DNA of 6,747 nt from Escherichia coli (GTDB lineage Bacteria > Pseudomonadota > Gammaproteobacteria > Enterobacterales > Enterobacteriaceae): the NCBI RefSeq assembly GCF_050320075.1, contig NZ_CP190024.1; one strand, written 5' to 3'. The notes under the pieces are model-generated. The model did not search any database. It was given only the letters and a program-made list of their open reading frames with translations, and was not told the DNA's origin. Positions 928-6,251 of this stretch are shown piece after piece. The position numbers and the translations under genes were made by a program. Within the stretch, counting starts at the first letter, position 1, and every line of letters begins with the position of its first letter.

Positions 928-975
928 ACCAAATAAAACCTATATCAGATAACAGCGCTTTTTTGAGCTGTTGGC
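928..975. promoter_or_regulatory. ColE2-type replication origin (Rep binding and primer synthesis site)
   Basis: Directly after the rep stop: AAATAAAACCTATATCAGATAACAGCGCTTTTTTGAGCTGTTGGCG. The core TATCAGATAACAGCGC (943-958) matches my recollection of the conserved ColE2-P9 minimal ori, which lies immediately 3' of rep in that family. Short inverted repeat ACAGC..GCTGT at 952-970. Exact boundaries are approximate. Confidence 0.6.
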
Positions 976-1035
976 GTTTGGTGGCTTTTTCGTTTCCTCC
1001 CTGCAATGGTGCGGCTTTCCGCGTGATTGAGGTTG

Positions 1036-1098
1036 TAGCGCTCGCCGCAGTCTCATGTCCGAGCGTAGCGAGCGAATGAGCGAGGAAGCGCAAAGGCG
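1036..1098. other. ColE1/pMB1-backbone-like segment, candidate single-strand initiation (primosome assembly) site
   Basis: GCGCTCGCCGCAGTCTCATGTCCGAGCGTAGCGAGCGAATGAGCGAGGAAGCGCAAAGGCG is roughly 80% identical by eye to the pMB1/pUC segment CCGCTCGCCGCAGCCGAACGACCGAGCGCAGCGAGTCAGTGAGCGAGGAAGCGGAAGAGCG, which sits just downstream of the ColE1-type origin. Functional call is inference from position (about 60-120 bp downstream of the ColE2 ori). Confidence 0.35.
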
Positions 1099-1132
1099 TC
1101 CGGTGGTGTATGTGGCTCTTACGCGCCGGGGC

Positions 1133-1550: not shown

Positions 1551-1586
1551 GCTGAAAGAAAACGGCAAAAAGGCATTACGGAAGAA

Positions 1587-3806
1587 ATGGCGATTTATCA
1601 TCTCAGCATGAAAATCATTTCGCGAAAAAACGGCTACAGTGCCGTTGCTTCTGCTGCCTACCGTTCCGGCTCTGTCATACCCGATGACCGTACCGGATTA
1701 ATCCACGATTACACCCGTAAACGCGGCGTTGATGATGCGGTCATTCTCACCCCTGCGAATGCACCGTCCTGGTGTGGTGACCGTTCCGTTCTCTGGAATG
1801 CGGTCGAGAAAGCCGAACAGCGCCGGAACTCCCAGCTGGCAAGGGAGATTGAACTCGCCATTCCCCGTGAGATTTCCCGCGAGGCCGCACGGGAGGCCGT
1901 TCTCGCTTTTGTCCGGGAAAACTTTGTCAGTCGGGGCATGATTGCCGATGTGGCGTTCCATCATATGGACCGGACCAACCCCCATGCACACATCATGCTG
2001 ACCACGAGAGCTGTCGGGGAAACGGGATTCGCAGGAAAGGTCAGGGACTGGAACGACCGGGCACTCGCCGAGACGTGGCGCGCATCATGGGCTGACCATG
2101 CGAACAGAGCGCTTGCGAACGCCGGCTACCAGGAAGAGATAGACCATCGTTCATACGAGCGTCAGGGACTGGAGAAAGCGCCGGGCCTTCACCTCGGAAA
2201 GGCTGCCTGTGCGATGGAAAAACGGGGCATGGAAACAGAACGCGGTGAGCAGAACCGCCTGATTAACAGCCTTAACCTGGAAATACAGGTTTCCCGCACA
2301 AGGCTGGCAGTCATCCAGGTACAGGAGAACGTGCGGAAACGGGAACTCAGCGATGCCGCACGTCGTGCAGCGGAAGCCCTTAATCTGACCATTCCCGCCG
2401 CGAATGCCTCAGCGGATACCCTGCGGGAATTCATTGCCACACTGCCGCAGGAATGCGGGAACGCATGGGAGATGACACCGGAGTTCGTGGCGATGAACGG
2501 GAAGGCAAACGACATCAAACGTGAGGGGAATGCGCTGGTGAAAGAGCGGGATATTCTCGAAAAAGAGATGACCGGACTCAGAAAATCCCGTCCGGTAGCG
2601 TCCATCCTGTCAGAGCTTCCCCTGATGACATGGGCTGAACCGGAATACCGCAAAAGACAACTCCGCTTCTGGAAACTCGAGAAACAGATTGAATCTCTTC
2701 TCCGCACCTACAGGGCCGTGAAAGAACGGGACATTCCCGCCCGTCGTCAGGCCTTTGAAACGCAGTGGAATACGTGGATTTCGCCGGGAATGGCAGAGCT
2801 GAAAGAAAAACTGTCAGCACGGGAAGCGGAGCGGCGCAGGGAGGAAGCCGAAGCGGAAGCGCGCCGGAAGGAACAGGAATATGACGCACGGCTGAAACAC
2901 CATGATAACCATCGCCTGAGCCGTGAAACGGCATTAGCCGGGGTTATTACGGAGCTGGGGCGTGCCAGAGAGCCGGGAACGGGCAGGATAACCCGCTACA
3001 TGATGCTGAGTAACAGAGCCGGAGAATTCACGGTATGGGGTGATGAGCTGGCGCATTACCCCCAGAGTGTTCATGACCCGGTGAATGTTTACCTGTCGCC
3101 AGGCGGGGCTGTGATGGTCTCGGATATACGTGAGAGAATGCCAGAATCTCATGAGACGATGGCGCGGCCTGAGCGTGTGAGAATGTATTCCGGTGCGACG
3201 GTCCGGCATGTACTGGAACAGATGCGCCAGGGGTGGCCCTCTTACGGTTTTCCGGCGCTGCCGCATCACTGGCCGGATAATTTTTATTTCAGCGACGACC
3301 GCAGGCCCGCAGCCTCTCCGCTGCCGTCAGCGCACCGGGTGGACGTCACCGCTTATGCGGCACCGGAGCAACTCATGCCCGTTGTCTTTTCGACAGAGCG
3401 AAACAGCAGGACGCTGAATCTGCTGTTGTGCGAAGGGCCGGAGGAAATGCTTGTCGGTTTTGTGCGCCTGGAGGACGAGCTGCGTCCCGTTCTTGCGCTT
3501 CCGTCGCCGGATTACAGTCATCTGATGGTAAGCATCATCACAGAGAACGGGATACACCTGGCAGGTTACGGTGAGGCCATAAACCGTGATGCTGATACTC
3601 CGTACCCACCGGAACCGAAGCTGATGCAGTTCAGGCTTAAGGGCTGTCAGGACACGCTTTTTGCTGCCATCAACAAACCGGAAGAGATGCCGGATTATCT
3701 CTTCCGTCAACTCGGATTTAATCAGACCTGGCATGAGTGGAAGCGGGAGGAACAGCGCAGGCAACAACAACGCCGTCCCGGGCACTTCCGGGGCATGAGT
3801 ATGTGA
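1587..3806 (+). CDS. mobA: MobA/MobL-family (MobQ) conjugative relaxase with a long C-terminal extension
   Basis: The ORF track starts at a GTG at 1500, but the in-frame ATG at 1587 gives the N-terminus MAIYHLSMKIISRKNGYSAVASAAYRSGS, typical of MobA relaxases (RSF1010 MobA starts MAIYHL) and placing the catalytic Tyr near the N-terminus. Histidine triad HHMDRTNPHAHIML. Stop TGA at 3804-3806. Residues from about 250 to 740 include a charged coiled-coil stretch and a C-terminal region I cannot assign to a domain by eye. Confidence 0.9.
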   Translation: MAIYHLSMKIISRKNGYSAVASAAYRSGSVIPDDRTGLIHDYTRKRGVDDAVILTPANAPSWCGDRSVLWNAVEKAEQRRNSQLAREIELAIPREISREAAREAVLAFVRENFVSRGMIADVAFHHMDRTNPHAHIMLTTRAVGETGFAGKVRDWNDRALAETWRASWADHANRALANAGYQEEIDHRSYERQGLEKAPGLHLGKAACAMEKRGMETERGEQNRLINSLNLEIQVSRTRLAVIQVQENVRKRELSDAARRAAEALNLTIPAANASADTLREFIATLPQECGNAWEMTPEFVAMNGKANDIKREGNALVKERDILEKEMTGLRKSRPVASILSELPLMTWAEPEYRKRQLRFWKLEKQIESLLRTYRAVKERDIPARRQAFETQWNTWISPGMAELKEKLSAREAERRREEAEAEARRKEQEYDARLKHHDNHRLSRETALAGVITELGRAREPGTGRITRYMMLSNRAGEFTVWGDELAHYPQSVHDPVNVYLSPGGAVMVSDIRERMPESHETMARPERVRMYSGATVRHVLEQMRQGWPSYGFPALPHHWPDNFYFSDDRRPAASPLPSAHRVDVTAYAAPEQLMPVVFSTERNSRTLNLLLCEGPEEMLVGFVRLEDELRPVLALPSPDYSHLMVSIITENGIHLAGYGEAINRDADTPYPPEPKLMQFRLKGCQDTLFAAINKPEEMPDYLFRQLGFNQTWHEWKREEQRRQQQRRPGHFRGMSM

Positions 3807-3868: not shown

Positions 3869-3925
3869 GCTCTGCGTTTTCTAAGTGTTATCCCTCCTGA
3901 CTTCTAAAAAATTTTCCACCTGAAC

Positions 3926-3954
3926 TTGACAGAAAAAACGATGACGGGTACTTT
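3926..3954 (+). promoter_or_regulatory. Colicin operon sigma70 promoter (-35 TTGACA, -10 approximately TACTTT)
   Basis: Consensus -35 TTGACA at 3926-3931. After a 17-bp spacer a candidate -10 TACTTT at 3949-3954. An A/T-rich tract lies upstream (3905-3920) and the LexA operators immediately downstream, as in E-group colicin promoters. Confidence 0.65.
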
Positions 3955-3959
3955 TTGAT

Positions 3960-3990
3960 CTGTACATAAAACCAGTGGTTTTATGTACAG
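3960..3990 (+). promoter_or_regulatory. Tandem overlapping LexA (SOS) operators
   Basis: CTGTACATAAAACCAG (3960-3975) fits the LexA box consensus CTGT-N8-ACAG, and an overlapping second box ends in ATGTACAG (3983-3990). The whole element CTGTACATAAAACCAGTGGTTTTATGTACAG is the classic dual SOS box of colicin promoters. Confidence 0.85.
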
Positions 3991-4037
3991 TATTAATCAT
4001 GTAATTAATTGTTTTAACGCTTAAAAGAGGGACTTTT

Positions 4038-5786
4038 ATGAGCGGTGGAGATGGACGCGGCCATAACACGGGCGCGCATAGCACAAGTGGTAACATTAAT
4101 GGTGGCCCGACCGGGATTGGTGTAAGTGGTGGTGCTTCTGATGGTTCAGGATGGAGTTCGGAAAATAACCCGTGGGGTGGTGGTTCCGGTAGCGGCATTC
4201 ACTGGGGAGGTGGCTCCGGTCGTGGTAATGGCGGGGGTAATGGCAATTCCGGTGGTGGCTCGGGAACAGGCGGTAATTTGTCAGCAGTAGCTGCGCCAGT
4301 GGCATTTGGTTTTCCGGCGCTTTCCACTCCAGGAGCTGGCGGTCTGGCTGTCAGTATTTCTGCAAGCGAATTATCGGCAGCTATTGCTGGTATTATTGCT
4401 AAATTAAAAAAAGTAAATCTTAAATTCACTCCTTTTGGGGTTGTCTTATCTTCATTAATTCCGTCGGAAATAGCGAAAGATGACCCCAATATGATGTCAA
4501 AGATTGTGACGTCATTACCCGCAGATGATATTACTGAATCACCTGTCAGTTCATTACCTCTCGATAAGGCAACAGTAAACGTAAATGTTCGTGTTGTTGA
4601 TGATGTAAAAGACGAACGACAGAATATTTCGGTTGTTTCAGGTGTTCCGATGAGTGTTCCGGTGGTTGATGCAAAACCTACCGAACGTCCAGGTGTTTTT
4701 ACGGCATCAATTCCAGGTGCACCTGTTCTGAATATTTCAGTTAATAACAGTACGCCAGCAGTACAGACATTAAGCCCAGGTGTTACAAATAATACTGATA
4801 AGGATGTTCGCCCGGCAGGATTTACTCAGGGTGGTAATACCAGGGATGCAGTTATTCGATTCCCGAAGGACAGCGGTCATAATGCCGTATATGTTTCAGT
4901 GAGTGATGTTCTTAGTCCTGACCAGGTAAAACAACGTCAGGATGAAGAAAATCGCCGTCAGCAGGAATGGGATGCTACGCATCCGGTTGAAGCGGCTGAG
5001 CGAAATTATGAACGCGCGCGTGCAGAGCTGAATCAGGCAAATGAAGATGTTGCCAGAAATCAGGAGCGACAGGCTAAAGCTGTTCAGGTTTATAATTCGC
5101 GTAAAAGCGAACTTGATGCAGCGAATAAAACTCTTGCTGATGCAATAGCTGAAATAAAACAATTTAATCGATTTGCCCATGACCCAATGGCTGGCGGTCA
5201 CAGAATGTGGCAAATGGCCGGGCTTAAAGCTCAGCGGGCGCAGACGGATGTAAATAATAAGCAGGCTGCATTTGATGCTGCTGCAAAAGAGAAGTCAGAT
5301 GCTGATGCTGCATTAAGTGCCGCGCAGGAGCGCCGCAAACAGAAGGAAAATAAAGAAAAGGACGCTAAGGATAAATTAGATAAGGAGAGTAAACGGAATA
5401 AGCCAGGGAAGGCGACAGGTAAAGGTAAACCAGTTGGTGATAAATGGCTGGATGATGCAGGTAAAGATTCAGGAGCGCCAATTCCAGATCGCATTGCTGA
5501 TAAGTTGCGTGATAAAGAATTTAAAAACTTCGACGATTTTCGGAGAAAATTCTGGGAAGAAGTGTCGAAAGATCCTGAGTTAAGTAAGCAATTTAATCCA
5601 GGTAATAAAAAACGCTTGAGCCAAGGATTAGCTCCACGGGCTAGGAATAAAGATACTGTCGGTGGGCGTCGCTCATTTGAGCTTCATCACGACAAGCCAA
5701 TCAGTCAGGATGGTGGTGTTTATGATATGGACAACCTCCGTATCACTACGCCGAAACGCCATATTGATATTCACAGAGGTCAGTAA
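4038..5786 (+). CDS. col: E-group DNase colicin (BtuB/Tol-dependent, HNH nuclease C-terminus), most consistent with colicin E8-type
   Basis: 582-aa ORF with RBS GAGGG at 4026-4030. Glycine-rich N-terminal translocation domain containing the TolB box DGSGW (residues 35-39). Central coiled-coil region of the kind that forms the receptor-binding domain. C-terminal HNH/beta-beta-alpha-Me motif [34 protein letters not shown], diagnostic of the DNase colicins E2/E7/E8/E9. Subtype inferred from the adjacent immunity gene. Confidence 0.93.
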
Positions 5787-5788
5787 AA

Positions 5789-6046
5789 ATGGAACTGAAA
5801 AACAGCATTAGTGATTACACTGAAACTGAATTCAAAAAAATTATTGAAGACATCATCAATTGTGAAGGTGATGAAAAAAAACAGGATGATAACCTCGAGC
5901 ATTTTATAAGTGTTACTGAGCATCCTAGTGGTTCTGATCTGATTTATTACCCAGAAGGTAATAATGATGGTAGCCCTGAAGCTGTTATTAAAGAGATTAA
6001 AGAATGGCGAGCTGCTAACGGTAAGTCAGGATTTAAACAGGGCTGA
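5789..6046 (+). CDS. imm: DNase-colicin immunity protein (Im family), Im8-like
   Basis: 85-aa ORF starting 2 nt after the colicin stop, with RBS AGAGG inside the colicin 3' end. Conserved Im-family blocks [12 protein letters not shown]...[13 protein letters not shown]...[17 protein letters not shown]. The variable specificity region ([32 protein letters not shown]) matches my recollection of Im8 rather than Im2, Im7 or Im9. Confidence 0.93.
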
Positions 6047-6107: not shown

Positions 6108-6251
6108 ATGAAAAAAATAACAGGGATTATTTTATTGCTTCTTGCAGTCATTATTCTGGCTGCATGTCAGGCAAACTATATCCGGGATGTTCAGGGCGGG
6201 ACCGTATCTCCGTCATCAACAGCTGAAGTGACCGGATTAGCAACGCAGTAA
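6108..6251 (+). CDS. Colicin release / lysis lipoprotein (bacteriocin release protein)
   Basis: 47-aa ORF absent from the ORF track because of its length. [47 protein letters not shown] has a signal peptide and lipobox (LAAC, lipidated Cys at position 20), typical of colicin lysis proteins. Strong RBS AAGGAG at 6097-6102; last gene of the col-imm-lys operon. Confidence 0.9.

Follow-up and report, generated by a model that had tools for sequence, protein, structure and literature searches.

In plasmids with ColE1-type origins, the lagging strand is served by a primosome site, ssiA or n'-pas, that closely follows the RNA/DNA switch and is still present in pUC-type origins; a further site, ssiB, lies more distantly downstream and has been lost or displaced in pUC-type constructs (PMC3167613). 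In a ColE1-like plasmid, too, an 82-nt stem-loop ssi has been located, ~60 nt away from oriV (PMC5935869). At sites of the phiX174 type, a hairpin on SSB-coated single-stranded DNA mimics a fork and recruits PriA (PMC5778457). Short hairpin elements beside a plasmid origin also start DNA strands in RSF1010, where they are called ssiA and ssiB (PMC8567376), and pHW126/pIGRK/pIGMS31-type replicons carry an ssi palindrome described as resembling the ssi found in other replicons; replication proceeds without it, but plasmids that lose it have a higher copy number and form multimers (PMC6854812, bioRxiv 2022.12.05.519187). For ColE2 itself, ssi elements were reported by Nomura et al. in 1991, as that work is cited in PMC7690428 and PMC6856555.

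The window analysed here, a stretch of 6,747 nucleotides from Escherichia coli, carries an imperfect 54-nt hairpin at 1038-1091 on the + strand. We regard this element as quite likely to be the functional homologue of ColE1-type ssiA (n'-pas, rriA), PriA-dependent and serving a ColE2-type origin. Its likeness to the ColE1/pMB1/pBR322/pUC element lies in homologous sequence, in a conserved hairpin and in a position, probably on the displaced strand, ~90-170 nt from the start of synthesis. The differences are that the window origin is primed by the Rep primase (ppApGpA) instead of by RNase H-cut RNAII, that the closing stem reads GCGCT/AGCGC rather than CCGCT/AGCGG, and that the middle stem is a perfect CTCAT/ATGAG where pBR322 ssiA has G.A mismatches. 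The proposed mechanism is also like that of the prototype, the n' (PriA) recognition hairpin of phiX174, although here the likeness is one of function and comes by way of the literature classification of ColE1 ssiA; copies of the block in filamentous phages occupy an analogous place, on what is presumably the packaged phage strand. RSF1010 is further removed, since its ssi sites form an oppositely oriented pair, are recognised by the RepB' primase of the plasmid itself and show no similarity to the block, whereas the window carries a single copy, on a single strand, and it is at the origin rather than at the block that ColE2 Rep makes its primer. The pHW126/pIGRK/pIGMS31-type replicons are unrelated to ColE2, though the effects of losing their ssi suggest phenotypes that loss of the present element might also show.

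The ColE1-like block and its plasmid

The window is a complete circular 6,747-bp ColE2-family colicin plasmid, identical from end to end to several E. coli records (e.g. NC_023325.1) and 95-96% identical to the colicin E2 and E9 plasmids. Its rep gene (1-927, +) encodes the ColE2-family initiator/primase, as judged from the ORF, the family recovered by tblastn and the annotation as replication initiation protein in identical records. The ColE2-type origin core, ATCAGATAACAGC, follows at 944-956 (+) and is conserved in 13/13 ColE2-type loci. Convergent with rep is a mobC-like accessory ORF (1133-1408, −), in keeping with the MOBQ4 organisation described in PMC6856555. The annotation of identical records supplies the remainder: a MOBQ relaxase gene (~1586-3806, +), a nuclease colicin gene (4038-5786), the immunity gene of the colicin (5789-6046) and a lysis gene (6108-6251). 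An Rfam scan found RNAI nowhere in the window, and the same scan was positive in the ColE1, L002 and L003 controls. With rep and the origin core present and RNAI absent, the replicon is of ColE2 type only, neither a ColE1 replicon nor a hybrid, which agrees with the original prediction of a ColE2-type replicon that lacks RNAII.

That prediction also held that some 60 bp beside the origin resemble ColE1/pMB1 sequence, and the resemblance proved to be far above chance. In a distant blastn search of window 980-1130 against 72,556 plasmid records, at least 5,000 records matched, with a common core at ~1037-1095. Window 1035-1124 aligns with ColE1 (NC_001371) 1306-1395 at 70/90 identities (78%, E 2e-16, plus/plus), and the pUC/pBR322-type copy shares 47 of the 60 positions of the core. 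A covariance model, R1, built from 54 distinct copies of the block, has a single match in the window, at 1036-1095 (+), with 84.8 bits (E 1e-18), and gives the ColE1 copy 82.8 bits, so that one model scores both above 80 bits. An unfiltered search of the whole window with R1 found no second or opposite-strand copy in the manner of ColE1 ssiB or the RSF1010 pair, the next-best matches (8-9 bits) being noise. The model found no second copy in ColE1 either, and the separate ssiB site of ColE1-type origins was not matched by it. No feature is annotated under the block in 39 of 40 records among the matches listed.

The boundaries of the block are narrower than the interval first proposed, 1000-1110. 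The core at 1038-1091, which hardly varies between ColE1- and ColE2-type plasmids with unrelated flanks, does lie within that interval, but the leftward part, 1000-1035 (+), is a lineage-specific spacer, conserved in the closest relatives only and variable in length and sequence among ColE2-type plasmids; the segment is missing altogether from the more distant L012, L053, L092 and L100. The spacer contains a predicted local hairpin at ~1000-1032, which was considered as a second ssi arm and rejected, its stem being broken without compensation in L005, L007, L008 and L128. To the right, the blastn alignment with ColE1 extends to 1124, and this weaker ColE1-like tail (1095-1124, +) includes the heptamer CTTACGC, found 26-30 nt past the block in ColE1 and in several ColE2-type loci.

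The sharing of this segment had been read, as an alternative, as a recombinational joint between ColE1-like and ColE2-like backbones. What stands of that idea is that a module of ~55-90 nt is common to unrelated replicons; homology to the ColE1 backbone is present in neither flank. Since the window has no RNAI/RNAII replicon, the ColE1 match is an isolated module rather than a backbone joint, and as far as sequence comparison goes the putative ssi module appears to be all that ColE1 replicons and the window replicon have in common.

Strand and distance relative to origins

We searched the GTDB representatives, one genome for each species, and the viral contigs of IMG/VR with a degenerate core pattern, which retrieved 124 loci. 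Three (L088, L091 and L116) were chance matches to the pattern and were dropped, and one, L054, is a degenerate copy of the block. In ColE1, RNAI lies on the minus strand (645-749), which makes RNAII plus-sense, and with it the nascent leading strand and the displaced parental strand. If the origin lies near 1194, as we take it to from the textbook distance to the RNAI 5' end, the ColE1 block (1307-1366, +) begins and ends ~115-170 nt past this estimated origin, on the displaced strand. The arrangement is general: among loci with detectable ColE1-type origin-proximal sequence, the block is on the RNAII-sense (displaced) strand in 77/77, representing 51 distinct cores, and in the 74 for which the distance from the origin could be measured it is 74-131 nt in 72 and ~315 nt in the other two.

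ColE2-type loci, counted as those with a ColE2 origin core within 400 nt, tell the same story. In 13/13 such loci (9 distinct cores), the block follows the origin core at a distance of 65-197 nt, on the rep/ori strand; these include plasmids of Klebsiella grimontii, Citrobacter braakii and Xenorhabdus with far more divergent Rep proteins. In L012, where the origin core is 1.4 kb away from rep, the block follows the origin and not rep. The spacer between ori and block ranges from ~20 to 150 nt and cannot be aligned between lineages; between ori and mobC, only the origin core and the block itself are conserved. The opposite orientation relative to the origin was found in none of the 90 classified loci.

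In the window, the trinucleotide AGA occurs within the origin core at 947-949, on the + strand only as read from the sequence, and it matches the ColE2 primer, ppApGpA. Given this primer and the plus-only AGA, the leading strand should run rightwards and displace the + strand; the direction thus depends on the primer sequence given in the ColE2 literature and on the position of AGA. The block lies 91-144 nt from AGA, and the comparison supports placing it on the displaced strand, with the distance and polarity seen in ColE1 plasmids.

A fixed strand could also reflect conjugation rather than vegetative replication, with the block priming the complementary strand on the transferred strand in the recipient after mobilisation. 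The predicted nick region of the window, a MOBQ-type oriT core (GTGCGCCCT, 1537-1545, +), shares its strand with the block, and if nicking takes place as in RSF1010/R1162, whose oriT sequence served as the guide in assigning the nick strand, the block would be on the transferred strand. The role of ssi elements as complementary-strand initiators in conjugation has been discussed as well (PMC7690428). However, in the Rep_3 plasmids L098, L047 and L090, which have a homologous MOBQ4 oriT, the core is on the strand opposite the block, whereas polarity relative to the vegetative origin is kept in all 90 classified loci. Moreover, the block is present in the ColE2-type L012, which MOB-suite types as non-mobilizable, and in pUC-type origins without mob genes. 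Because the orientation of oriT flips between carriers, block polarity follows the vegetative origin rather than the transferred strand, and we consider a conjugative role unlikely as the explanation of the block; a secondary conjugative use in the window plasmid could nonetheless exist. For the same reason, namely that orientation to oriT flips between ColE2-type and Rep_3-type carriers, we rejected the notion that the block travels with the MOBQ4 mobilisation module.

The conserved hairpin

The fold of the block was derived from an alignment (A2) of its 54 distinct copies. In a structure of 12 pairs, 92.3% of cells are paired, compared with 19-44% when partners are slid by 1-3 columns, and changes on both sides are seen in seven of the pairs. 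None of 500 shuffles reached the observed pairing or covariation score, a statistic that overstates independence, given the kinship among the copies. The 25 positions fixed by the retrieval pattern yield uninformative columns. RNAalifold independently gave the same helices, together with an extra pair that swaps between C-G and G-C. The stem-loop of the block has thus been kept in evolution by compensatory changes across the 54 copies.

Its closing stem, P1, pairs GCGCT at 1038-1042 (+) with AGCGC at 1087-1091 (+), corresponding to columns 3-7 and 55-59, in which 98.9% of cells are paired. Substitutions here are extensive: CG, AU and GC at 3-59, CG and UA at 4-58, and UA and CG at 7-55, adding up to six complementary versions of the stem (CCGCT/AGCGG, GCGCT/AGCGC, GTGCT/AGCAC, ACGCC/GGCGT, GCGCC/GGCGC and ACGCT/AGCGT). 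Both arms are outside the retrieval pattern, and the P1 covariation is therefore no artefact of ascertainment. The 3' arm coincides with the site of the AAGCGG hexamer in ColE1/pBR322, the motif common to n' sites in the literature of the 1980s. The window reads AAGCGC at this site (1086-1091), and it can do so because the hexamer is one arm of a stem whose partner base changed along with it; likewise, AAGCAC goes with GTGCT in L004-L008. From the aligned copies, then, AAGCGG appears to behave as an arm of P1.

The middle stem, P2, found both in the alignment and by RNAalifold, joins CTCAT at 1052-1056 (+) to ATGAG at 1076-1080 (+), or columns 17-22 to 44-48. At pair 22-44, 37 copies have CG and 15 have UA, while pair 21-45 varies among AU, GC and GU, and pair 18-47 between UA and CG; pBR322-type copies carry G.A/A.G mismatches at pairs 18-47 and 19-46. 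Above P2, a single pair, C1060-G1072 (+; columns 27-40), is swapped from CG to GC in 16 copies. The apex is a mini-hairpin, GC-GTA-GC, at 1063-1069 (+), with pairs G1063-C1069 and C1064-G1068 and the loop G1065 T1066 A1067; at apical pair 30-37, 38 copies have GC and 14 have AU. The loop conforms to G-N-A, where N can be T, C, G or A; its first position is almost always G, with A in three copies, and its final A was imposed by the retrieval pattern. In some copies the loop is G-N-N-A instead. Such an apex resembles the very stable GCGNAGC-type DNA mini-hairpins. G.T wobbles outnumber A.C mismatches by 12 cells to 2, and this excess, the G-N-A loop and the tandem G.A mismatches all favour the + strand as the one that would fold.

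Thermodynamic folding is less informative. The window sequence is unremarkable (z-scores −0.6 to −1.8), and folding both strands of 1000-1110, of 1030-1100 and of the ColE1 counterpart gave z-scores from +0.4 to −1.8, values that neither support nor exclude a structure, so that covariation is needed. Standard DNA parameters assign −3.8 kcal/mol to the window fold that covariation supports and −12.5 kcal/mol to an alternative pairing of CGCTCGC at 1039-1045 with GCGAGCG at 1068-1074. Alternative conformers are therefore possible, and which conformation is active is uncertain.

The compensatory changes and the fixed orientation bear on whether the block has any present function at all. It might be an inert relic of recombination between a ColE1-like and a ColE2-like plasmid, given that the shared segment is short, that small enterobacterial plasmids are mosaic (PMC2831885) and that ColE1 and the window share other islands, in the colicin promoter region (3925-4017) and the lysis gene (6161-6203). 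By blastn, the window has no ColE1-like islands beyond these two and the block. A relic would be expected to decay and lose its orientation, however, whereas the block holds its polarity and distance to the origin in every classified locus, accumulates compensatory substitutions in its stems and is, apart from the origin core, the sole island conserved between ori and mobC across ColE2-type loci. We therefore think it extremely improbable that the block is inert.

A GC-rich inverted repeat between converging gene ends, as at 927 and 1133, could equally suggest a transcription terminator or an RNA element between rep and mobC. The hairpin is not followed by a T-run on either strand, though, a consensus scan detected no terminator-like site at 1036-1095 on either strand, and no Rfam family matches the block. 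Related plasmids have a separate covarying hairpin with a T-run right after the origin, upstream of the block, that looks like the rep terminator, and convergent genes do not flank the block in its ColE1-type, Rep_3 and inovirus settings. A role in transcription is accordingly about as hard to credit as an inert relic, and the reading of the hairpin as an ssi is the one we prefer.

Proposed function and other carriers

In the pUC-type loci L040, L051, L060 and L108, pMB1-derived sequence stops right after the block (…GAGCGAGGAAGCGGAAGAGCGCCCAAT…) and is followed by what we recognise as lac-derived vector sequence. The short post-origin segment in which ssiA has to lie thus ends with the 60 nt of the block. 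Together with the geometry, the statements on ssiA in PMC3167613 and on the stem-loop ssi in PMC5935869 support the view that the block corresponds to the ssiA of ColE1-type origins.

The class of site is a separate matter. Several classes of ssi exist and AAGCGG is altered in the window, and the element might therefore belong to another of them, either recognised by DnaG (G4-type) or dependent on DnaA, instead of being PriA-dependent. This seems to us very unlikely, given that the block matches, position by position, its ColE1/pMB1 homologue, which is assigned to the PriA/n' class (PMC3167613), that the change in AAGCGG is compensated within the stem, and that no DnaA-box-in-hairpin feature was seen in the element by eye.

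A PriA-dependent site at this position suggests the following sequence of events. Rep would make the short primer ppApGpA at AGA 947-949, and its rightward extension by DNA polymerase I would displace the + strand. Once ~90-145 nt had been synthesised, 1038-1091 would be exposed on the displaced + strand and could then fold through the stems 1038-1042/1087-1091 and 1052-1056/1076-1080 and the apex GC-GTA-GC at 1063-1069. PriA would recognise this hairpin on the SSB-coated DNA and, with PriB, DnaT and DnaC, load DnaB onto the lagging-strand template, whereupon DnaG would prime the lagging strand and polymerase III would take over. The observations behind this scheme are the homology, the single copy, the same strand and distance at two unrelated types of origin, and the conservation of the fold; from them we infer the direction of ColE2 leading-strand synthesis, the dependence on PriA and activity in the window plasmid. 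Such a site would explain how the lagging strand is started in a replicon whose Rep primes the leading strand only. The suggestion that the segment is a lagging-strand priming or primosome assembly site is thereby supported, to the extent that sequence analysis allows, by the ssiA homology, the probable position on the displaced strand, the compensated hairpin and the presence of copies on the coding strand of phages.

The element of the window is very probably a known kind in a known place and has already been described. The block of a colicin E2 plasmid differs from it by a single base, at an unpaired position, and an ssi of ColE2 was reported in 1991, which makes an earlier description very probable. 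The accepted picture of ColE1 and ColE2 replication is unchanged by our analysis; what may be worth a separate look are its by-products, namely the fold, AAGCGG as the arm of a stem, the strict polarity and the spread to Rep_3 plasmids and inoviruses. The comparative data amount to a sequence-and-structure definition of the ColE1-type ssi, consisting of a covariance model and a fold backed by covariation, and they mark 1038-1091 as a putative cis element that minimal ColE2-type vectors could keep or from which it could be deliberately removed.

The block is not a constant companion of ColE2-type origins. The covariance model found no copy in the ColE2-type loci L009-L011 and L013-L016, four of which (L009-L011 and L013) are Col(Ye4449)-type with ColE1-like mob genes. 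L011 and L013 are loci that end at the end of the record; their origin lies elsewhere in the locus and is not followed by a block. We accordingly rejected the block as an ancestral part of all ColE2-type replicons, and since several such replicons do without a copy, it is not obligatory for ColE2-type replication.

Conversely, ~40 of the loci are neither ColE1- nor ColE2-type, and 20 of these gave no RNAI. Three separate groups (L098/L047/L090, L120/L035 and L139) carry the block 500-700 nt upstream of genes for Rep_3/RepE-type initiators, which share its strand. Two IMG/VR contigs, L018 and L019, are filamentous phages (inoviruses) in which the genes and the block are on one strand, placing the block on the coding strand. 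L018 encodes a gene II-like replication protein (phrog_453) and has the block in its main intergenic region, upstream of the replication gene; L019 encodes pI (phrog_1675), a secretin and an attachment protein, and its block separates gene I from gene IV. In known filamentous phages, the packaged strand is the coding-sense one, and it has to carry a complementary-strand origin. L018 and L019 therefore look like the classical ssi complementation assay set up by nature, in the polarity proposed above.

One attractive possibility raised by these carriers is that the 54-nt hairpin is a portable, orientation-locked cassette for DnaB loading, used by at least four unrelated systems (ColE1 with RNAII, ColE2 with its Rep primase, Rep_3 iteron plasmids and filamentous phages) and built from P1, of which AAGCGG is one arm, a middle stem that tolerates G.A mismatches and a G-N-A triloop apex. 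We see this generalisation as standing about evenly between right and wrong. According to it, the cassette would have moved between replicon classes and into filamentous phages. If it is correct, the polarity of the block could predict the direction of the fork in uncharacterised small replicons, and some filamentous phages would use a PriA-type complementary-strand origin, as opposed to the RNA-polymerase-type origin of M13.

As a minor observation on the phage contigs, further ORFs of L018 were read by eye, from their resemblance to L019, as pIII-like, pVI-like, pI/Zot-like and secretin-like.

The block in iteron plasmids and filamentous phages

The ssiA-like block is also carried by plasmids that replicate from iterons with a Rep_3/RepE-type initiator (L098, L047, L090, L120, L035 and L139), in which it lies 500-700 nt upstream of rep and on the same strand. 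Three of these (L098, L047 and L090) are pIGWZ12-like MOBQ4 plasmids with a homologous oriT core, GTGCGCCCT, and there the core and the block occupy opposite strands; in the window both are on the + strand. The Rep_3-type plasmid L139 has two copies of the block, at 4733-4792 (-) and 5747-5806 (+). They are oppositely oriented and about 1 kb apart, an arrangement reminiscent of the ssiA/ssiB pair of RSF1010, and the small ORF between them looks, by eye, like a putative PemK/MazF-type toxin gene.

Two filamentous-phage contigs from IMG/VR contain the block as well, at 9213-9272 (-) in L018 and 2312-2372 (-) in L019, with scores of 72.6 and 75.9 bits, respectively, against the covariance model. 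In the former it is upstream of a gene II-like replication gene, at a distance of about 600 nt and within the main intergenic region, and in the latter it falls in the interval between genes I and IV. In both contigs the strand bearing the block is the one that encodes all of the phage genes. These copies suggest that some inoviruses possess a PriA-type complementary-strand origin.

Many other matches came from non-enteric assemblies, among them Streptomyces, Cutibacterium, Microbacterium, Flagellimonas and Micromonospora (L022, L024, L038, L046, L055, L059, L069, L077, L078 and L081 are included in this set, along with others). These are short contigs that carry either pUC/pBR322-type block sequences or a single recurrent identical sequence, and they most likely reflect contamination of the assemblies by a cloning vector or laboratory plasmid.

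Sequences flanking the block

Directly 3' of the ColE2 origin core, the related plasmids L141 (957-985) and L004-L008 have a covarying GC hairpin followed by a T-run (for example, GCGCCTTTTTGGCGC TTTTTT), which looks like a terminator for rep. In the window, at 957-975, roughly 15 nt have been deleted or rearranged (AGCGCTTTTTTGAGC) and the hairpin is broken, and rep transcripts may therefore read through towards the ssi. Tandem duplicate origin cores precede a single block in two ColE2-type plasmids; they lie at about 1888 and 2151 in L005, and at distances of 65 and 197 nt from the block in L053.

On the other side of the block, the heptamer CTTACGC is found 26-30 nt downstream in ColE1 (about 1388-1394) and pBR322-type copies, as well as in several ColE2-type plasmids, including the window (1117-1123), L004, L053 and others. 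In some of these plasmids the heptamer shares bases with the stop codon of the mobC-like gene; in the window it is clear of it. An imperfect 18-nt direct repeat (78%) is also present, with one copy directly after the block (1100-1117, CCGGTGGTGTATGTGGCT) and the other inside the mobC-like gene, at its 3' end (1153-1170, CCGGTGGTCTGGGTAGCT).

Other ColE1-like segments and RNA elements

Besides the block region, similarity to ColE1 in the window is confined to 3925-4017 and 6161-6203. The first segment lies upstream of the colicin gene and probably includes its SOS-regulated promoter, with a palindromic element at 3960-3996; the second falls within the lysis gene.

In the divergent plasmids L092 (3994-4110) and L100 (6489-6605), the Rfam family PK-repBA (repBA leader pseudoknot) was matched, barely at the gathering score, directly upstream of ColE2-type rep genes. 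L100 may be a composite contig, since a ColE1-type RNAI is also present there, together with a C4 antisense RNA.
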